DNA of 64,000 nucleotides from Parvibaculaceae bacterium (GTDB taxonomy: Bacteria > Pseudomonadota > Alphaproteobacteria > Parvibaculales > Parvibaculaceae): NCBI GenBank assembly GCA_965216825.1, contig OZ244201.1, positions 492,629-556,628 of the forward strand, read 5' to 3'. The notes under the pieces are model-generated. The model searched no databases. It saw nothing but the letters and a program-made list of their open reading frames with translations, and had not been told where the DNA came from. Each line of letters starts with the position of its first letter. Position 1 is the stretch's first letter. Shown here piece by piece: positions 5,341-13,948 of this stretch. Position numbers and translations under genes: made by a program.

Positions 5341-6246
5341 ATGGGTTACAACACCATCAAATACGAGGTTGAGGACAATATCCTGACCCTCACGCTGCAC
5401 CGTCCGGACAAGATGAACGCTTTCACCGGCGAGATGATGGCCGAGATGATCGACGCCTTCGACCGGGCCGATGCGGACGATGACGTCCGGGCGATCATCG
5501 TGACCGGCGAAGGCAAGGCTTTCTGCGCCGGGGCGGACCTGTCGGCAGGCGCCAAGACCTTCGACTATGAAAAGCGCGACGACCGGCCCGACAAGGAAGG
5601 CTCGGCCATGACGGCGGACGGCGAGGTCAACTGGAGCCACCCGTCGGTGCGCGACGGCGGCGGCCGCCTGACGCTGCGCATCTATGAAAGCCTGAAGCCG
5701 GTGATCGGCGCCATCAACGGCGCGGCTGTCGGCATCGGCGTCACCATGCAATTGCCGATGGATATCCGTCTGGCGTCCGACAAGGCCCGTTTCGGCTTCG
5801 TCTTCGCCCGCCGCGGCATCGTGCCGGAAGCCTGCTCGAGCTGGTTCCTGCCGCGCGTCGTCGGCGTCAGCCAGGCGCTGGAATGGACCTATTCGGGCCG
5901 CGTGTTCGACGCGGAGGAAGCGCTGCGTGGCGGTCTGGTGAAGGAAATCTACAAGCCGGAAGAACTGCTGCCGGCCGCGCGCGCGATTGCCCGCGAGATC
6001 GCGGACAATACGGCGCCGGTCTCCATCGCGCTCACCCGTCAGATGATCTGGCGCATGGCCGGTGCCGACCATCCGATGGAAGCGCACAAGATCGACAGCC
6101 GGGCCATCTATGCGCGCGGCGCATCGGCGGACGCCAAGGAAGGCGTCATGTCGTTCCTGGAAAAACGGCCCGCGACCTATCCGTGCAAGGTATCGGAAGA
6201 CATGCCGTCTTTCTTCCCCTGGTGGGAAGAGCGCGAATACAAGTAA
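5341..6246 (+). CDS. enoyl-CoA hydratase/isomerase (crotonase) family protein
   Basis: LTLHRPDKMNAF, VTGEGKAFCAGADL and GAINGAAVGIGVTM motifs. The ATG at 5341 follows GGGAGA. The track ORF starts earlier, at 5290. Confidence 0.85.
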   Translation: MGYNTIKYEVEDNILTLTLHRPDKMNAFTGEMMAEMIDAFDRADADDDVRAIIVTGEGKAFCAGADLSAGAKTFDYEKRDDRPDKEGSAMTADGEVNWSHPSVRDGGGRLTLRIYESLKPVIGAINGAAVGIGVTMQLPMDIRLASDKARFGFVFARRGIVPEACSSWFLPRVVGVSQALEWTYSGRVFDAEEALRGGLVKEIYKPEELLPAARAIAREIADNTAPVSIALTRQMIWRMAGADHPMEAHKIDSRAIYARGASADAKEGVMSFLEKRPATYPCKVSEDMPSFFPWWEEREYK

Positions 6247-6273
6247 GCGCGCCGCAGAGACGATCGGGACCGG

Positions 6274-7524
6274 TCAGGCGGCGGACGCCTGGCCGGTTCT
6301 GGCTTCCAGCCGCCACAGGCCGGTGAAGAAGAAAATGCTGAGCCAGAGCACCACCATGCAGCTCGACGGCACCAGCACGGCATCGAGCGGCCCCAGCAGC
6401 TTGATCACGAAGCCCGACAGCAGCGCGCCGATCGGCCCGCCGCCCATCGACCCCAGTTGAAAAACCGAAAGCACCCGCGCGCGGTGACTGTCCGTCGCCG
6501 CCGCCTGTACGATCGCGCGCGACTGGCTCATGGAAACGCCTGCCGACAGGCCCCAGCAGAGCGCCAGCGTATAGACCAGCCAGAGCGGCGGATGGAAATG
6601 CAGGAACACCATCACGATGGAGCCCATACACATGGCGGACATGATGGCACGCCCCTGACGGCGGATCGGCGGCAAGCGGCTTTGCATCATCGAGGAAAGA
6701 CCGATGCCGCCGAAGAAGCAGGCATTGATGAAGGCGATCTCGAAGGATCCGCCGCCGTAAATGTCGCGGATGAGGATCGGAAACAGCACCATGAAGACGC
6801 CGATGTAAAGAATGCCCGAGAAAAACATGAGGAGAACGACAGGGCGGATGCTCTCGCTTTGCCAGACAATATCGATCCCTTCGCGGATCTGCCGCAATTG
6901 CGAGGGCCGGCTGCCCGACGCACCATGAACCTCGCTGGGCGGGGCAGGCGGCAGGCGCATGGTCGTCACCGCCGCCATGAAGAGGGAGAAGGACTGCGCG
7001 ATCATCAGCGGCGCGGCGCCGACAATGGTCGCCAGCCCGCCGATCAGGAGGCCGAGCACCTGAGACAGGAATTGCATGCCGGTCGCCATCGTGACCGCCT
7101 GCTGGATGCGCCCGCCGAGGCTGGTCTTGGCCACGCGCGTAAGCAGCGAGTCGCGCGCCGGCATGGTGAACGCGCCGAGCGCGGAGAGAAGGAGCGCGTA
7201 GGCGATCATCGCCTCGTAGGAGAGATAGCCCGTCAGTAAAAGGGCGACGAGGCCAAGCGGAATGACGGACGCCACCAGTTGCAGCCGCATCAGATGGCGG
7301 CGCAGTTCTGCGCGGTCGGCGCTGGCGCCGCCGAACAGGCCGAGCAGCAGCATTGGCAGCATGGCGAACATCTGGGCGAGGCCCACCCGGTCCGCGCTTT
7401 GCTCCAGAACAAATGCGATCAGCCAGGGAAAGATGACCGATTGCACGCCGCCGGCGAAAAAGTAGGCGCCGACGCCACCCATGTACCAGTGAAGGTCGGC
7501 TCTGTTCTGATGCTCCTGCGCCAC
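6274..7524 (-). CDS. MFS transporter (EntS/MFS_3-like), paralog 1 of 3
   Basis: 416 aa and highly hydrophobic. It shares FPWL..LGLFGGASADR..MPARDSLL motifs with the two downstream paralogs. Confidence 0.85.
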   Translation of the reverse strand: MAQEHQNRADLHWYMGGVGAYFFAGGVQSVIFPWLIAFVLEQSADRVGLAQMFAMLPMLLLGLFGGASADRAELRRHLMRLQLVASVIPLGLVALLLTGYLSYEAMIAYALLLSALGAFTMPARDSLLTRVAKTSLGGRIQQAVTMATGMQFLSQVLGLLIGGLATIVGAAPLMIAQSFSLFMAAVTTMRLPPAPPSEVHGASGSRPSQLRQIREGIDIVWQSESIRPVVLLMFFSGILYIGVFMVLFPILIRDIYGGGSFEIAFINACFFGGIGLSSMMQSRLPPIRRQGRAIMSAMCMGSIVMVFLHFHPPLWLVYTLALCWGLSAGVSMSQSRAIVQAAATDSHRARVLSVFQLGSMGGGPIGALLSGFVIKLLGPLDAVLVPSSCMVVLWLSIFFFTGLWRLEARTGQASAA

Positions 7525-7634
7525 GGCAGTTCCTCGCTCGGATCGTCCGCAGGACGGTCATCTCCTGCGCCAGAAAGGGCGTAAGCGGAATGCCGGAAGA
7601 AGGCAAGCCGCCAGCGCCGCAGGCGGCCAGATCC

Positions 7635-8834
7635 TCAGTCGGACGCTGCGGCAGTGGCGAGGGTGCGAATCGACCAGATGGGCGTCGCCGCGCAGGCGAG
7701 CATGAGCATCACAAGCATGCCCGCCGACGGGATCAGCACCGCGATATGGGGCCCGAACCACTCGATATAAAAACCGCTGAGGAACGCCCCGATGGGCGCG
7801 CCGCCGAGCACCCCCATCTGGAACACGGCGAGCACCCGGGCGCGGTGGGTCGGCGGCGCCGATTCCTGGATGATCGTGCGGTTCATCGTCATGGCGACGC
7901 CGCCGCCGCATCCCCAGAAAAAGGCCACGAGCACGAACAACGGAAAGCTCGGGGCAATGGAGAAGGACGCCATCACGAAGGCGCCCCAGAAAAGCGCAAT
8001 GATCAGTGCGCGGCCCTGCCGGACGATGCCGCCTGCGCGCCCGATCAGGGTCGCCGTCAGGATGATGCCCGTCATCATCGCAATGTTCGTATAGGCAAGC
8101 TCGGGCGACCCGCCGTCGAATATGTCCCGCACGAAGATCGGCAGGACGACCTGAGACGTGCCGAAAAACAGGATGCCGACGCCGAACACGATGGCCGTCG
8201 GCGCAAAGAGGCGCGGCGTGTTTCGAACTTCCCGCAGCCCGTCGGCAATCGCGCCGATGGAGGGCGCCCGCCCGCCCGTCGGCTTGTGTGTGGGGAGATA
8301 AACCGCGAGGGCAGCGCCCGCCCACAGGAGCGCTGCCTGGCAGAGGAAAATGACTCCGACGCCGATCAGCGGTTCCATCGCCGCAAGGCCGAAGCCGACG
8401 ATCTGCGCGCCGAACTGGAAGGCCGTCGCGGCCATCACCGCCTTCTGGATATTCGAGCCGGAAATATAGGACAGGAGAGAATCCCGGGCGGGAATGATGA
8501 AGGCGCCCGCCGTGCCCATGATCAGCGCATAGACGATCAGCAGCGGATAGGTGAGCGTGTCGGTCAGGTAGGCGGCGAACAGCCCGATCGCGGGCAGCCC
8601 GGCAAGCACGTGTACGAGGATGAGAATGCGGCGGCTGTCTATATGGTCCGCGGTTGCCCCGCCCAGCAGGATCAGCAGCATGGTCGGCAGGAAGAGCGCC
8701 ATCATGGCGAAGCCGAGTTCTGCCGGTCCCTGTCCAAGGTAAATCGTCACGAGGAACGGAAAGAGGACGGTCTGGATGCCGATCGCGCCGAACCAGCTGA
8801 CGAGGCCGCCGAGATAGAACGTCAAAGGGCGCAT
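7635..8834 (-). CDS. MFS transporter (EntS/MFS_3-like), paralog 2 of 3
   Basis: 399 aa with LFPFLV..LLGGATADHIDSRR..IPARDSLL motifs. It is colinear with its neighbours. Confidence 0.85.
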   Translation of the reverse strand: MRPLTFYLGGLVSWFGAIGIQTVLFPFLVTIYLGQGPAELGFAMMALFLPTMLLILLGGATADHIDSRRILILVHVLAGLPAIGLFAAYLTDTLTYPLLIVYALIMGTAGAFIIPARDSLLSYISGSNIQKAVMAATAFQFGAQIVGFGLAAMEPLIGVGVIFLCQAALLWAGAALAVYLPTHKPTGGRAPSIGAIADGLREVRNTPRLFAPTAIVFGVGILFFGTSQVVLPIFVRDIFDGGSPELAYTNIAMMTGIILTATLIGRAGGIVRQGRALIIALFWGAFVMASFSIAPSFPLFVLVAFFWGCGGGVAMTMNRTIIQESAPPTHRARVLAVFQMGVLGGAPIGAFLSGFYIEWFGPHIAVLIPSAGMLVMLMLACAATPIWSIRTLATAAASD

Positions 8835-8858
8835 GCGTGGTTCCTTGCTGAGGGACGG

Positions 8859-10085
8859 TCAGGCGGCGGGAGCGCGCAGCGACCAGAGCCGGGAGGTTAG
8901 CATAAGCCACGCGAGAACCAGCGTCATGCCGCAGGCGGGAAACCACATGGCGGTATGCGTGCCGAAAATGCCGGCGAGGACGCCCATCAGCAGCGAACCC
9001 AGCGGCGCCCCGCCGGAAAAGCCGAGCTGGAAGATCGAAAGCGCGCGTGCCCGGAATGCATCGTCCGCCTGTGCCTGCACGATCGTCCGGCTCAGCGTCA
9101 TGACGCATCCGGCGCCAAGCCCCCAGATGAGCGAGAATGTGCAGAACAGCCAGAACGGAATTTCGAACGAAAAGCCCGTAACCGCGGCGACGCCGGTGGC
9201 AAGGGCCAGGATCATGCCGCGGCCGCGGCGCGTCACATGGCCGAAGCGCAGGAGAAAAACCGTCGAGACGATGGTGCCGCCCCAGAATGCGATATTGGCC
9301 GTCCCCAGTTCGACCACGCCGCCGAGATAATAGTCGCGCACGATCAGCGGCAGGATGACGAGGAAGGACCCGATATAGAAGACCCCGACGGCGAACATGG
9401 CGATGACGACCGGCAGCAGGACATCCGATTGCCGTACATACCCGAGCCCGTCGCGCATGGCGCGAAGCCGCGGCGCATGAACGGTGCTCGCGTCCACCAC
9501 TTTTGGCGGCAATTGGCGGGCGGCCAGTCCGCCCCCCAGAAGAATGAGCGATTGCATGGCAAAGAGAAGGGGCGCGCCGAACGCTGCCGCGGAAATGGCG
9601 GCCACCATGCCGAGCAGTTGCGTGGTCTGCTGAACCGCAAGCGCCAGCGTCACGGTTCGCTGGATGTTGCCCTGGGCCACCCGGTTGAGCGTCGCATCCC
9701 GCGCGGGCACGGCGAAGGCGGTCGCGAGCCCCATGCAAAGCCCGTATCCGATCAGGACTTCATAGGAGAACGCATCCGCATTGAGCATCGTCGCAAGCGC
9801 CAGCGGCGGTACTGCCGCAAAAAGATGAACGCGGAAGAGAATGGTGCGTGGGTCGCTCCGGTCCGCCGTTGCGCCGCCGAGCAGCATGAAGAGCAGCGCG
9901 GGCGCCGACAGGCTCATCTGCGCGATGCCGACCCGCGCCGGTGTTTCGTGCAGCACATTGGCGACGAGAAACGGGAACAGGACGAACTGCAGGCCGATGC
10001 TCGTGAACCAGGCGCCCTGGCCCGCCATGTACCAGGCCAACGGCCGCGCATCCGGTACGCTCTCTTTGATCCGATCGTCGCTCAC
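8859..10085 (-). CDS. MFS transporter (EntS/MFS_3-like), paralog 3 of 3
   Basis: 408 aa with LFPFLV..LLGGATADRSDPR..VPARDATL motifs. Confidence 0.85.
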   Translation of the reverse strand: MSDDRIKESVPDARPLAWYMAGQGAWFTSIGLQFVLFPFLVANVLHETPARVGIAQMSLSAPALLFMLLGGATADRSDPRTILFRVHLFAAVPPLALATMLNADAFSYEVLIGYGLCMGLATAFAVPARDATLNRVAQGNIQRTVTLALAVQQTTQLLGMVAAISAAAFGAPLLFAMQSLILLGGGLAARQLPPKVVDASTVHAPRLRAMRDGLGYVRQSDVLLPVVIAMFAVGVFYIGSFLVILPLIVRDYYLGGVVELGTANIAFWGGTIVSTVFLLRFGHVTRRGRGMILALATGVAAVTGFSFEIPFWLFCTFSLIWGLGAGCVMTLSRTIVQAQADDAFRARALSIFQLGFSGGAPLGSLLMGVLAGIFGTHTAMWFPACGMTLVLAWLMLTSRLWSLRAPAA

Positions 10086-10165: not shown

Positions 10166-10831
10166 TCAGCGGGCAGCGGCCTTGATGTCGTCGTAAGTGT
10201 GGATGCGGCTCGGACCGTCTTCGGCGAGCGCACTCACCATCGCCTGCGCGACGTCCCGCGCGGCGATGCCCCGGTATTTGCGGAGCGATCCCTGCAGGCC
10301 GAGATTGAGAAGGGGCGTGAGGCCCGCCGCCAGCATCTCCGCAGGGCGTGTCTCGTCCCGCTTGCCCAGAAGAACGCCCGGCCGGAAAATGTGACAGGAC
10401 GGAAAGCCCAGGGCCCGGATCGCCTCCTCGGTTTCCCCTTTGACGCGCGAATAGAAGATGGACGATTTGGGGTCCGCCCCGACGGCGGAGACAAGCGCGA
10501 ACCGGGTCACGCCTGCGTTGAGGGCGGCTTGCGCGAACGCGACCTCATAGTCGAAGTCGACCTGCCGGAAGGCCTTCTTGCTGCCCGCCTTGCGGATCGT
10601 CGTCCCGAGTGCGCAATAGGCTTCGTCGGCTTCCTTCACGCCGGCGCGAAGGGTGGTCTCCAGGTGGTCGAAATCGACCACATGGTTTTCGAGCTTGTCG
10701 TGGGTCAGGTCGAGATAGCGCCGCGTCACGGCAACCACCTTGGTGTGGCGTGGCGACGCCAGCAGAATATCCAGGAGTTCGGTACCGACGAGGCCGGTTG
10801 CCCCGGCGAGCAGGGCTGTACTTGATGACAT
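10166..10831 (-). CDS. NAD(P)H-binding atypical SDR (HTATIP2-like oxidoreductase)
   Basis: 221 aa with an N-terminal Rossmann motif LLAGATGLVGTELL. Confidence 0.7.
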   Translation of the reverse strand: MSSSTALLAGATGLVGTELLDILLASPRHTKVVAVTRRYLDLTHDKLENHVVDFDHLETTLRAGVKEADEAYCALGTTIRKAGSKKAFRQVDFDYEVAFAQAALNAGVTRFALVSAVGADPKSSIFYSRVKGETEEAIRALGFPSCHIFRPGVLLGKRDETRPAEMLAAGLTPLLNLGLQGSLRKYRGIAARDVAQAMVSALAEDGPSRIHTYDDIKAAAR

Positions 10832-10855: not shown

Positions 10856-12079
10856 TTATGGCGGTGTCGGCCCGGTATAGCGGGCGCGGGGACGGATCAA
10901 GCCAGGTCGTTGCTGTTGCTCGATCGCGTGGGCGATAAGCCCCGCGGTGCGTCCCAGTGCGAAAAGCGACAGGGCCGCGCCACGCGGCAGTCCAAACGTA
11001 GCGCCTATAGCGGCGAGGGCAAGGTCTACGTTGGGTTTTATCCCGGCTGCGGTCTTCATTGTCTTGATGACGGCGGAAACGCGGGCATAAGCGTCGCTGT
11101 CGCCCCGGTGTTCCTCCATGAAGCGCATCAGCATTTTCGCGCGAGGATCGCCGTCCGGGTAGAGCCAGTGGGAAAAGCCGGGCATTGGTTCCTGGTCGCG
11201 CAGGCGCTGCCGTACCGCCTCCACCGGGTCCGCTTCCGCGGAAAGGTCGCGTAAGAGGTTTTCCGTGCGCCGCGAAATGCCGCCATGCCGGGAGCCCTGC
11301 AGGGCGGCAAGACCGGCCATCACAGCGCCATAGAGCGTTGCGCCGGCCGCCGCCGTGGTGCGCGCGGTAAAGGCCGACGCATTGAGCTCGTGATCGGCAC
11401 AGAGCACCAGCGCCGCGCGAATGGCTTCGCCCGTCGTGTCGTCCTTGTTCCATGCGTGCTGCAGGACCTTGTGCACCGGTGCGGCGCTCGGGTCCGTTCC
11501 CGCGATGGTCGCGGCGACAAGGCGCAGAATACGCACGCCGGTGGCGGCCAGGCCCTCGGGTGTTGTGTTGAACAGCGTCGTGTCGGCGACCGCCGCAACC
11601 GGCAGCAGCGCGAGGCATTTGTCCACGGGCGGCAGATCGAGATCGAGGGGCGGCAGGGCGGGGGGAAGAACCTCCGACCGGAACGGGTTCGAGCCGCAAT
11701 CCCACAAAAGGGAAGCGACCGTCTCGAGCGTTGCGGTGGCCGCAAGCTGGGTGGCGTCCGACCCGCGGTAATAAAGCCGGCCGTCGGCGATCAGCGTGAT
11801 CGAGGAATCGAGCAGGGGCGGGCCGAAATTGAGGGCATAGCCCGCATCGTCCGGGGCGACTTTCGGCTCCCCGCTGCGGGCGGCGCGGCGGTCTTTCAGG
11901 CCGCGGACGTCCTCTGCGCGGTACCGCCGGGCGCGCGAGCGCGGCACCGGTTCGGAGCGGACCAGGTCGCGGCTCACATAGGCATAAAGCGTCGGCAGGC
12001 TCACGCCGAGTTCGGCCGCGGCCTCCTTTGCGGTGAGGTAAAGCGCGCCCTCATCGCCCGTATCGTCATGTCTTTTCAT
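10856..12079 (-). CDS. citrate-synthase-family protein with an N-terminal MerR/excisionase-type HTH
   Basis: The N-terminus (LTAKEAAAELGVSLPTLYAYVSRDLV) is an HTH_17-like motif. The remainder is citrate-synthase-like: ADHELNASAFTART, LQGSRHGG, GFSHWLYPDGDPRA, NVDLAL, GRTAGLIAHAIEQ. Confidence 0.8.
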   Translation of the reverse strand: MKRHDDTGDEGALYLTAKEAAAELGVSLPTLYAYVSRDLVRSEPVPRSRARRYRAEDVRGLKDRRAARSGEPKVAPDDAGYALNFGPPLLDSSITLIADGRLYYRGSDATQLAATATLETVASLLWDCGSNPFRSEVLPPALPPLDLDLPPVDKCLALLPVAAVADTTLFNTTPEGLAATGVRILRLVAATIAGTDPSAAPVHKVLQHAWNKDDTTGEAIRAALVLCADHELNASAFTARTTAAAGATLYGAVMAGLAALQGSRHGGISRRTENLLRDLSAEADPVEAVRQRLRDQEPMPGFSHWLYPDGDPRAKMLMRFMEEHRGDSDAYARVSAVIKTMKTAAGIKPNVDLALAAIGATFGLPRGAALSLFALGRTAGLIAHAIEQQQRPGLIRPRARYTGPTPP

Positions 12080-12082
12080 ACA

Positions 12083-12099
12083 TTGATTAGCTTAATCAA
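12083..12099. promoter_or_regulatory. perfect palindrome TTGATTA-GCT-TAATCAA in the divergent promoter region
   Basis: 7-bp arms read directly from the sequence. It lies 4 nt outside the start codon of the HTH-citrate-synthase gene and about 80 nt upstream of the divergent citrate synthase gene. Confidence 0.5.
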
Positions 12100-12176
12100 G
12101 ATTGACGGTCCTAGCAACCGGGGACAAGTTGAACACAGGAAACGCCCGGGCTGACTTTTCAGCAATGGAGAAAGAC

Positions 12177-13286
12177 ATGACCAACAAGAAAAACGAGACG
12201 CGCTCAACCGGTGGCCTGGAAGGCGTCGTCGCAGCCGAAACGGCCCTGAGCCGGGTGGATGGTGACGCCGGACGCCTGATCGTCGCGGGCCGGGACCTGC
12301 CCGACCTGGTGGCGGCGACCGACTTTGAAGGCGTGACGGCCGCCTTGTGGACGGCGGCGGGCGAAAAGGCGGACCCGGGCGAGGTTCGCCGGGCAATCGG
12401 CGCCGCGCGGGTCGACGCCTTCGGCCATGTGCCGGCGCTGCTCGAGGTGTGCGGCGGCCTCAACGTCATCGAGGCGCTGCGGGTCGGCCTGTCGCTGCTG
12501 CCGGACGTGCATGACCAGCCCGCGCATCTGCGTCTGGTCGGCGCCATGCCGGTCTTGGTCGCGGCGCTCGTGCGGCACGGGAAGGGCGAGGCGCCCGTCG
12601 CCCCCGATCCCGAGGGTGCGCATGCCGCAGACTATCTGCGCATGCTGACCGGCTCTGTGCCGGGAGAGGTCGAAGCACGCGCGATGGACGCCTATCTCAC
12701 CACCGTTGCCGACCACGGCATGAATGCCTCGACCTTTACCGCGCGGGTTGTCGCCTCGACCGATGCGGGCGCCGTGTCCTCGGTGCTGGCCGCACTGTGT
12801 GCGTTGAAAGGCCCCCTGCATGGCGGTGCGCCCGGGCCGGTTCTCGATATGCTCGACGGCATTGGCCGTGAGGAGAATATCGAGCCGTGGCTGCGCGCAG
12901 CGGTGATGAACGGCGAACGCCTGATGGGCTTCGGCCACCGCATCTACCGTGTCCGCGATCCGCGTGCCGACGTGCTGGGCGCGCAGGTCGCGCGGCTGGC
13001 CGGCGCGGGCGCGCGCACATCGTTCGCCCTCAAGGTGGAAGAAACCGCACGGGCCGTGCTGAAGGAGCTGAAGCCGCACCGGCCCCTGGACACCAACGTG
13101 GAGTTCTATACGGCGCTCCTGCTTGAAGCGCTGGGCATTCCGCGCGATGCGTTCACGCCGACCTTCGCTGTCGGCCGGGTTGCCGGATGGACGGGCCACA
13201 TCATGGAGCAGGAGAAAGTGGGCCGCCTGATCCGCCCCTCCGCCCGCTATGTGGGCGCCCTGCCGGATGATCTCGAAGTCGCCTGA
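12177..13286 (+). CDS. citrate synthase / 2-methylcitrate synthase family protein (about 370 aa type)
   Basis: GLEGVVAAET, ADHGMNASTFTARV, LKGPLHGGAPG, GFGHRIYRVRDPRA and GRVAGWTGHIMEQ motifs. The ATG at 12177 follows GGAGAAAG. The track ORF starts at 12102. Confidence 0.85.
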   Translation: MTNKKNETRSTGGLEGVVAAETALSRVDGDAGRLIVAGRDLPDLVAATDFEGVTAALWTAAGEKADPGEVRRAIGAARVDAFGHVPALLEVCGGLNVIEALRVGLSLLPDVHDQPAHLRLVGAMPVLVAALVRHGKGEAPVAPDPEGAHAADYLRMLTGSVPGEVEARAMDAYLTTVADHGMNASTFTARVVASTDAGAVSSVLAALCALKGPLHGGAPGPVLDMLDGIGREENIEPWLRAAVMNGERLMGFGHRIYRVRDPRADVLGAQVARLAGAGARTSFALKVEETARAVLKELKPHRPLDTNVEFYTALLLEALGIPRDAFTPTFAVGRVAGWTGHIMEQEKVGRLIRPSARYVGALPDDLEVA

Positions 13287-13295
13287 CCCGGCGGC

Positions 13296-13745
13296 TCAAC
13301 AGGGATCGAGCGAGTCGAACGCACGCTGGATGAGCCGGATTGCCGGCTCGTCCAGCAGTTCGGGATGCCACTCGCCGAACCGCAGGATCTGCCGTTCCAG
13401 CTGCTGATAGGTGGCATCGCGCGGCACCAGTGCGCACTGGTAGCGCTCCGTGTCGTTGTTCGGGTGGATCTTGTGGGTCCCCTCGTTTGCCTGCATTGCC
13501 TGCAGGCTGGAGAAGAAACCGCTGACATATTGCCGGCAATAGCGCGCCTTGCCGCGGATACGCGCATCGGGATCGGCAAGCGCCTGGTCGATGGCCTGCT
13601 GGCAGAAGGTGACGAGGTCGCGCCCGGTCTCGACGCGCACCCGCGCGTCAGCAGGGGACGCGAACAGCAATGCCAGGCAGATTGCGGAAACGGAAAACAG
13701 ACACCGTGGCGGGAGGAGGGAGGTCAGTCGCTGAAATCCGTCCAT
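13296..13745 (-). CDS. exported protein, tentatively Rap1a/Tai4-like fold
   Basis: Signal peptide ..CLALLFASPADA, then a cysteine pattern TFCQ..YCRQYVSGF..QCALVPRDATYQQL..WHPELLDEPA..DPC resembling Rap1a-type periplasmic immunity proteins. The start could be 13745 or 13769. Confidence 0.55.
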   Translation of the reverse strand: MDGFQRLTSLLPPRCLFSVSAICLALLFASPADARVRVETGRDLVTFCQQAIDQALADPDARIRGKARYCRQYVSGFFSSLQAMQANEGTHKIHPNNDTERYQCALVPRDATYQQLERQILRFGEWHPELLDEPAIRLIQRAFDSLDPC

Positions 13746-13948
13746 CGGTCCCAAAGACCTTCCACGCATTCGCCGGTCGAATACTGGCTTGTCAGCATCC
13801 GCATCGGCCGCTCCGCGAGATTGCCGATCGTGTCCTCCGCCATTTCCTGCGCAAGCGCCCGGCAGGGGTCCAGCGTGCTGTAAGTGCCGTAAAAGACGCC
13901 GCCGATGGCAATGGCGATCAGTGCAAGGCCGCTGATGATTGTACGCAT
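13724..13948 (-). CDS. small membrane-anchored hypothetical protein (74 aa)
   Basis: N-terminal TM helix MRTIISGLALIAIAIGGVFYG followed by a short two-Cys domain. Confidence 0.5.
   Translation of the reverse strand: MRTIISGLALIAIAIGGVFYGTYSTLDPCRALAQEMAEDTIGNLAERPMRMLTSQYSTGECVEGLWDRWTDFSD

Follow-up and report, generated by a model that had tools for sequence, protein, structure and literature searches.

At positions 10856..12079 on the minus strand of a 64,000-nucleotide stretch of a Parvibaculaceae genome (contig OZ244201.1; the window, from whose first letter we count all coordinates unless another locus is named), an open reading frame (ORF) encodes a protein of 407 amino acids (aa) in which a predicted N-terminal helix-turn-helix (HTH) domain is fused to a complete citrate-synthase fold. 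The gene is divergent from a minor citrate synthase gene at 12177..13286 on the plus strand, here called CS2 and presumed to be its target, and a palindromic candidate operator (12083..12106, minus strand) lies in the 97 bp between the two. Sequence, synteny and phylogenetic distribution suggest that the 407-aa protein is probably a one-component, metabolite-sensing regulator of itself and of the divergent minor citrate synthase, with the citrate-synthase-fold body acting as its sensor. We refer to such proteins as CitC-type, a family that we define by full-length homology including a TLYAYVSR helix and that includes Caulobacter CitC.

Architecture and active site of the fusion protein

Pfam matches the fusion protein to Citrate_synt (PF00285) with an E-value of 2.9e-56 and 191.5 bits, and its alignment with the NCBIfam model NF009005 covers aa 99-406. 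None of its 23 NCBIfam matches, which concern models of citrate synthase, 2-methylcitrate synthase and citryl-CoA (coenzyme A) lyase, reaches the curated cut-off, and the top one is TIGR01800 with 154 bits versus 421. An AlphaFold2 model calculated with 69 homologues as input has a mean predicted local distance difference test (pLDDT) score of 88.7 and places the citrate-synthase fold at aa 89-407 (10859..11815, minus strand). The best Foldseek matches of this model in the PDB are 2-methylcitrate synthases (PrpC), citrate synthases, and Mycobacterium tuberculosis CitA, with a template modelling score of about 0.7 over about 355 columns. Pfam, NF009005, AlphaFold2 and Foldseek thus agree on the full two-domain, all-helical citrate-synthase fold.

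In front of this fold, HTH_17 matches aa 14-59 (11903..12040, minus strand) with an E-value of 6.1e-06 and 26.9 bits versus a curated cut-off of 27, and the same region scores 20.9 bits with MerR_1 (cut-off 21.6) and 18.6 bits with MerR, also below the cut-off. Many orthologues carry precomputed matches to PF12728, PF13411 and PF00376. The structural model displays the topology of a winged HTH with helices at aa 17-24 and 28-36, a beta wing at 42-54 and a further helix at 55-69, followed by a disordered linker at aa 70-88 (11816..11872, minus strand; pLDDT below 50) that is variable in sequence and length in the alignments. An earlier sequence-only reading of this locus had proposed a citrate-synthase fold behind an excisionase/MerR-type HTH at residues 10-40; the profile searches and the structural model agree with this architecture. 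It would have been abandoned had the HTH varied among orthologues, and the segment T30-R37 (TLYAYVSR, aa 30-37) is invariant in 69 homologues of 47-81% identity; this speaks for a genuine, strongly constrained HTH.

As a presumed DNA-binding head of HTH plus beta wing, this domain resembles MerR/excisionase-type proteins (PF13411, PF00376 and PF12728), but all of its scores stay below the curated cut-offs and the AlphaFold2 model contains neither the coiled-coil dimerisation helix nor the C-terminal effector region of MerR proteins, since linker and citrate-synthase fold follow helix 55-69. The candidate site differs as well: MerR proteins bind sites that are centred in a 19-20-bp promoter spacer, which does not apply to the palindrome at this locus as far as promoters can be guessed. 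A MerR-type mechanism of spacer distortion is therefore unsupported, given the lack of a coiled coil and of a recognisable spacer around the site.

The sequence-only reading had also remarked that the signature motifs of citrate synthase are altered. RHGG (aa 264-267) and GFSHWLY (aa 301-307) are present as described, but these changes lie beside functional residues and not at them, so that no catalytic or oxaloacetate-binding residue is removed (H265, H304 and D352 are kept). We aligned 81 fusion proteins with 72 neighbouring synthases and the GltA of the window's own genome. Across the 81 fusion members, the motifs DHE-N-S (H230), HGG (H265), GFGH (H304), DPR (R313), N-x-D (D352), G-R (R377) and IRP (R396) are each found at 90-100%. 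By standard motif mapping, we take H265, H304 and D352 to be the equivalents of the catalytic His/His/Asp of pig citrate synthase (H274, H320 and D375), and H230, R313, R377 and R396 presumably correspond to its oxaloacetate/citrate ligands H238, R329, R401 and R421'. On this assumed mapping, the fusion protein possesses the catalytic triad together with every oxaloacetate/citrate-binding residue of real citrate synthases.

The presumed contacts to CoA are a different matter. Four residues after H304, the fusion family has Pro308 (at least 90% in the alignment) and not a basic residue, and compared to CS2 and GltA it shows a 7-residue deletion just before D352 as well as an 11-residue deletion earlier in the fold. 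We take the position four residues after the histidine and the segment before the aspartate to be the counterparts of the CoA-phosphate contacts of the pig enzyme (R324 and K366/K368, respectively), and with roles assigned in this way the fusion protein lacks these basic residues. Because the ligand residues are kept, the oxaloacetate/citrate pocket looks intact, and because of Pro308 and the 7-residue deletion the CoA site of the family looks remodelled. For the window's protein, a reading as a dead enzyme was rejected since the catalytic residues are all present; the alignment does not establish a pseudoenzyme, and residual catalysis is possible. At two positions, the fusion family is even more canonical than CS2, as it keeps the catalytic Asp and DHE where the CS2 family has Glu (NVEF, not NVDF; 96% of 72 sequences) and DHG. 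Bacillus subtilis CitA (PDB 2c6x) likewise reads NVEF.

The divergent synthase and the candidate operator

The presumed target at 12177..13286 scores 408 bits with NF009005 versus a cut-off of 332, and the PDB entry that it matches best is 2c6x (B. subtilis citrate synthase 1; E-value 5.4e-76), followed by M. tuberculosis CitA. It is thus a minor citrate synthase of the type of B. subtilis CitA, M. tuberculosis CitA and Caulobacter CitB, and its earlier description as a bona fide-looking citrate/methylcitrate synthase paralogue divergent from the fusion gene stands. For its start, ATG 12177 is more likely than TTG 12102 because a GGAG precedes it at 12168-12171. Including these two, the 3.3-Mb genome contains three genes for citrate-synthase folds, with a GltA-type enzyme (476 bits) encoded elsewhere.

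To see how widely this arrangement occurs, contigs of one genome per species were searched for the peptide patterns [PA]TLYAYVSR and IRPRARY[TI]G. At least 600 stretches matched and 591 were confirmed, so that the fusion is present in at least 591 species; in an even sample of other Alphaproteobacteria it was found in 36 of 400 genomes. Full-length homologues retrieved by protein search have 376-432 aa, many with precomputed matches to both PF12728 and PF00285, and where databases name them at all, it is as citrate synthase or citrate synthase family protein. Genomic context was compared for the best 80 of the at least 600 matched stretches (L001-L080), which come from 8 named phyla: Pseudomonadota, Chloroflexota, Acidobacteriota, Binatota, Actinomycetota, Deinococcota, Thermomicrobiota and Gemmatimonadota. 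In 72 of these 80 loci, a citrate synthase gene lies upstream on the opposite strand and is transcribed away from the fusion gene or from the operon that contains it, and by tree placement 71 of these 72 partners are of the CS2 type and one is of the GltA type. The partner is mostly immediately adjacent, with an intervening gene in some loci of Chloroflexota and Gemmatimonadota. A tree of 151 proteins splits fusion and CS2 proteins on one long branch with a support of 100 in the Shimodaira-Hasegawa-like approximate likelihood ratio test (SH-aLRT); the fusion would therefore be an old, distinct lineage and not a recent copy of its neighbour.

Some loci from Chloroflexota and Gemmatimonadota form larger units, with a pyridoxal phosphate (PLP)-dependent enzyme in the fusion operon or an isocitrate/isopropylmalate dehydrogenase, aminotransferase or methyltransferase in the CS2 operon (L042:2973-3935, L046:2517-3782, L068:2707-3786 and L074:3072-3776). 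With this composition, the same operator may serve a branch from citrate to 2-oxoglutarate/glutamate.

The region between the two genes (12080-12176, 97 bp) begins with TTGATTAGCTTAATCAA (12083-12099), a perfect 7-3-7 palindrome with the structure TTGATTA-GCT-TAATCAA. On the strand of the fusion gene, the whole candidate operator reads GTCAATCTTGATTAAGCTAATCAA (12083..12106), which can be parsed as GTCAAT-C-TTGATTAAGCTAATCAA; its end lies 3 nt ahead of the start codon. The pattern TCAAT-N-TTGAT-N6/7-ATCAA is matched perfectly at 12083-12105, the sole perfect copy in the own 3.3-Mb genome. The sequence-only reading had been concerned with control of the adjacent synthase; this has to be corrected in that the candidate regulatory site, the palindrome at 12083-12106, is located at the fusion gene's own start, and autoregulation is therefore expected as well. 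Since the site abuts the start codon, autorepression appears likely.

The site recurs with the gene across loci. A strict pattern (TTGAT-N5-9-ATCAA with at most 1 mismatch) has a match in front of the fusion gene at 64 of 75 loci, compared to a rate of 0.024 matches per 270 nt in the remaining sequence of these loci. When aligned, the sites have GTCAAT-[CA]-TTGATT-N4/5-[AG]ATCAA-tAT in common and are mostly situated 1-30 nt before the start codon; in many Alphaproteobacteria, a single base separates the site from the fusion gene's ATG, and these genes should therefore have leaderless or near-leaderless mRNAs. With an oriented, relaxed pattern (TCAA-N2-TTGA-N7-10-TCAA with at most 1 mismatch, within 1.3 kb upstream), a site is present at 75 of 78 loci, and the 657,633 nt contain just 2 further forward sites. 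Where another gene such as that of the PLP enzyme precedes the fusion gene in its operon, the site remains in the divergent promoter region beside CS2. The window's protein and locus share all of these family traits, namely homology across TLYAYVSR, a divergent CS2 partner, and an operator-like site just upstream.

On the scale of whole genomes, an exact pattern (TCAATNTTGATN{6,7}ATCAA) was scanned in 401 Alphaproteobacteria, comprising the own genome and the 400 sampled ones, and occurs in 38 of them. It is present in 23 of the 37 fusion-bearing genomes, exactly once in each and about 10-90 nt from the gene match, versus 15 of 364 genomes without the fusion; these 15 mostly have a size of 1-2.5 Mb, and their sites often lack the TTGATT...AATCAA form. 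Gene and candidate site therefore show strong co-occurrence, which is not to be read as a p-value.

A possible second regulon member was considered at C1:2953215-2953237 (L116:3716-3738; TCAATCGTGATCAAGCTCATCAA), the genome's sole copy with 1 mismatch. It is probably due to chance because, inside a minus-strand ORF (L116:2803-3774), an in-frame ATG that could serve as a start (MSLITIEE...) overlaps with it.

Three loci show the fusion gene without an adjacent citrate synthase, two from Binataceae (L041 and L061) and one from Anaerolineaceae (L071). Their divergent gene instead encodes an HMGL-like protein of 440-460 aa (L041:2552-3877, L061:2428-3810 and L071:2553-3875) that matches models of homocitrate, isopropylmalate and citramalate synthases, all below the equivalog cut-offs, and the candidate operator lies between this gene and the fusion gene in all three. 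Re-citrate synthase is a member of the same superfamily, and its genes often carry the wrong annotation of homocitrate synthase, in Chloroflexota among others (PMC12016533). The HMGL-like partners are possibly Re-citrate synthases, in which case these loci may have kept regulator and site and exchanged the target for one of unrelated fold, maybe with the same reaction.

Caulobacter CitC and the probable mode of action

Experimental data on this family come from Caulobacter, for which Berge and colleagues (Berge et al. 2020, eLife; PMC7083601) described two additional genes for citrate synthases, citB (CCNA_03757) and citC (CCNA_03758). CitB complements an E. coli gltA mutant and CitC does not (PMC7083601), the sole experimental datum that bears on the function of the fusion family. 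We assembled the first 33 nt of citC from two primers of that study, and a genus-level scan with this 33-mer yielded one genome with an exact match; a metagenome scan with a 19-nt citC primer returned 31 loci and no citrate synthase. The ORF begins MTDWMDAEQVLERLGIRPQTLYAYVSRG and encodes 392 aa that are 38% identical to the window's fusion protein over its full length (window aa 14-406). CitC keeps the catalytic His/His/Asp. The divergent CitB, whose sequence (MSDGLEGV...EVRVAA) agrees with the primers, shares 54% identity with the window's CS2, and there is a candidate operator, GTCAATCTTGATCAATATAATCAAT, with its end 4 nt before the ATG of citC. By sequence and context, CitC is a member of the fusion family, and its operator and partner correspond to those of the window. 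Architecture, family, divergent partner and operator are all shared with the window; the differences are that CitC reads GFDH where the family consensus is GFGH and the window has GFSH, and that it is shorter (392 versus 407 aa).

The sequence-only reading knew of no characterised member of this architecture. This did not hold in so far as CitC had been subjected to the gltA complementation test, but that study treated it as a third citrate synthase paralogue and never mentioned an HTH or DNA binding (PMC7083601). Literature searches for a regulator with a citrate-synthase fold or an HTH-citrate-synthase architecture found no description, and the supplements of the same paper and of two papers on Caulobacter transcription start sites, as far as these supplements were complete, contained nothing on CCNA_03757/03758.

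Citrate synthases are obligate dimers, and binding of ligands to them causes a large movement from an open to a closed domain arrangement. We propose that the fusion protein, too, would dimerise through its citrate-synthase body, as expected from the family, and that the two N-terminal winged HTH domains of the dimer would sit on the palindrome at 12083-12106 in the shared 97-bp promoter region. In this position it would control two transcription units: that of the fusion gene itself, whose transcript is probably leaderless and in this lineage maybe includes an NmrA-like and two MFS genes downstream (see below), and the divergent minor citrate synthase gene. The citrate-synthase-fold body would be the sensor, with ligand binding altering the affinity for DNA; oxaloacetate or citrate would be the most likely ligand and an acyl-CoA a less likely one. 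The core idea of the sequence-only reading, an enzyme fold recruited as the sensor domain of the adjacent synthase's regulator, thus gains strong comparative support from the invariant HTH, the divergent pairing in 72 of 80 loci, and an operator-like site that tracks the fusion gene.

Several points weigh against this proposal. The HTH_17 score falls 0.1 bit short of the Pfam cut-off, and a consensus scan placed no sigma-70 promoter in the intergenic region. The co-occurrence counts overstate their statistical weight because related genomes are not independent. The failure of CitC to complement could be due to poor expression or folding in E. coli. Finally, it is difficult to see why a pure sensor would retain the whole catalytic triad, which would suit a working enzyme just as well.

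This last point leads to the alternative that survives best, a trigger enzyme in the manner of PutA or BirA: a working, perhaps slow, citrate/acyl-CoA-condensing enzyme that is at the same time a DNA-binding regulator and whose turnover or substrate flux, and not mere occupancy by a ligand, sets its binding to DNA. The prediction of a full citrate-synthase fold is of high confidence, catalytic His/His/Asp and all oxaloacetate-binding residues persist at 90-100% across phyla, and the fusion has the canonical Asp, in contrast to the Glu of the working CS2 family. Yet CitC does not complement gltA in E. coli, and Pro308 at the position four residues after the histidine, the 7-residue deletion before the Asp and the 11-residue deletion earlier in the fold also argue against it, so that we consider a trigger enzyme rather unlikely.

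Much less likely is an ordinary metabolic isoenzyme with an HTH that is vestigial or serves protein contacts and a palindrome that is bound by another factor or is a promoter element. Intact catalytic residues and the database names of the homologues are what one would expect of it, but a vestige would hardly keep its recognition-helix motif invariant across 8 phyla. The site, moreover, tracks the fusion gene and not CS2, stays in loci without CS2, and has few exact copies in genomes without the fusion; CitC failed to complement; and the own genome already has a GltA-type enzyme and CS2. A regulator acting by protein contacts would pair its citrate-synthase body with subunits of CS2 (or GltA), which would thereby be tethered or inhibited, and its binding to DNA would be a secondary matter. 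This view would draw on the dimerisation of citrate synthases through their large domain and on the co-encoding of fusion and CS2 paralogues (72 of 80 loci with a divergent citrate synthase), yet it is the least credible reading and highly improbable given the long, fully supported branch between the two families, the pairing with HMGL-like partners of unrelated fold, and data in which nothing indicates hetero-oligomers.

The proposed metabolite-sensing regulator has parallels among known systems. In B. subtilis, the minor citrate synthase gene citA reportedly has a divergent gene for a LysR-type repressor, citR, a system said to have been described by Jin and Sonenshein in 1994. The target enzyme is of the same type (CS2 resembles 2c6x, including the Glu of NVEF) and a dedicated regulator is encoded divergently from the minor synthase in both cases, but CitR belongs to the LysR family and has no citrate-synthase fold, whereas the window's proposed regulator is unrelated to it and would use an enzyme fold as its effector domain. 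MocR, GabR and PdxR combine an HTH with an aminotransferase fold, and PutA and BirA are trigger enzymes. All of them share with the fusion protein an N-terminal DNA-binding domain on a complete, dimerising, metabolite-binding enzyme fold, usually encoded beside the regulated gene, but they differ in the enzyme fold and in the type of HTH (HTH_17/MerR-like with a wing in the window) and are not homologous to it.

Enzyme-fold regulators are therefore already known as a kind, and the citrate-synthase fold as a sensor would be an addition to the short list of enzyme folds reused in this way if binding holds. Should the operator be bound as predicted, the fusion proteins would constitute a large transcription factor family of broad phylogenetic range, whose members are everywhere annotated as "citrate synthase". 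Thousands of entries that push up the number of citrate synthases in metabolic models would then be corrected, the failure of Caulobacter CitC to behave like a citrate synthase would have an explanation, and it could be tested directly how bacteria govern the entry into the oxidative branch of the tricarboxylic acid cycle via a dedicated second synthase. A defined operator of about 24 bp, an existing citC deletion in the laboratory strain Caulobacter NA1000 (PMC7083601), and a few candidate ligands are at hand as material for tests.

Neighbouring genes and minor observations

Downstream of the fusion gene by 24 nt and on the same strand lies a gene for an NAD(P)H-binding, NmrA-like protein (10166..10831, minus strand; Pfam NAD_binding_10 and NmrA), followed by two tandem MFS_3 transporter genes (7635..10085, minus strand, with the individual genes at 8859-10085 and 7635-8834; Pfam MFS_3 and MFS_1). 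We found no intergenic terminator between the fusion gene and these genes. A co-oriented NmrA-like gene and then an MFS homologue also follow the fusion gene in the Parvibaculaceae loci L001-L005 and L007, and the arrangement is not conserved outside the Parvibaculaceae. The NmrA-like and the two MFS_3 genes are thus possibly part of the fusion gene's operon as a lineage-specific extension.

These genes enter into a more far-reaching and speculative version of the trigger-enzyme account, to which we assign a low probability. As a flux-sensing trigger enzyme, the fusion protein would bind oxaloacetate and perform, or half-perform, the condensation, with the open-to-closed movement as the switch that releases or engages the operator. 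In at least 8 phyla, it would thereby set the expression of a dedicated second citrate synthase (of Si-type or of the unrelated Re-type fold) according to substrate supply, which the cell would gauge with a copy of the very enzyme, and in the Parvibaculaceae lineage it would also drive the NmrA-like and the two MFS_3 genes, possibly a citrate export module.

For the intergenic region, -35 and -10 boxes were also placed by hand and dropped as unconvincing. The MFS_3 paralogues at 7635-10085 are EntS-like, and a strong positive AT skew (0.26-0.29) at 6001-10000 coincides with them. Tail to tail with CS2, a 157-aa ORF on the minus strand (13296-13769) matches Rap1a (PF18602, 34 bits), a family of type VI secretion immunity proteins, and has homologues at a similar position in L005 and L006. 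Further along the window, the segment 24001-26000 stands out with a G+C content of 0.712 compared to about 0.62-0.66 in its flanks.

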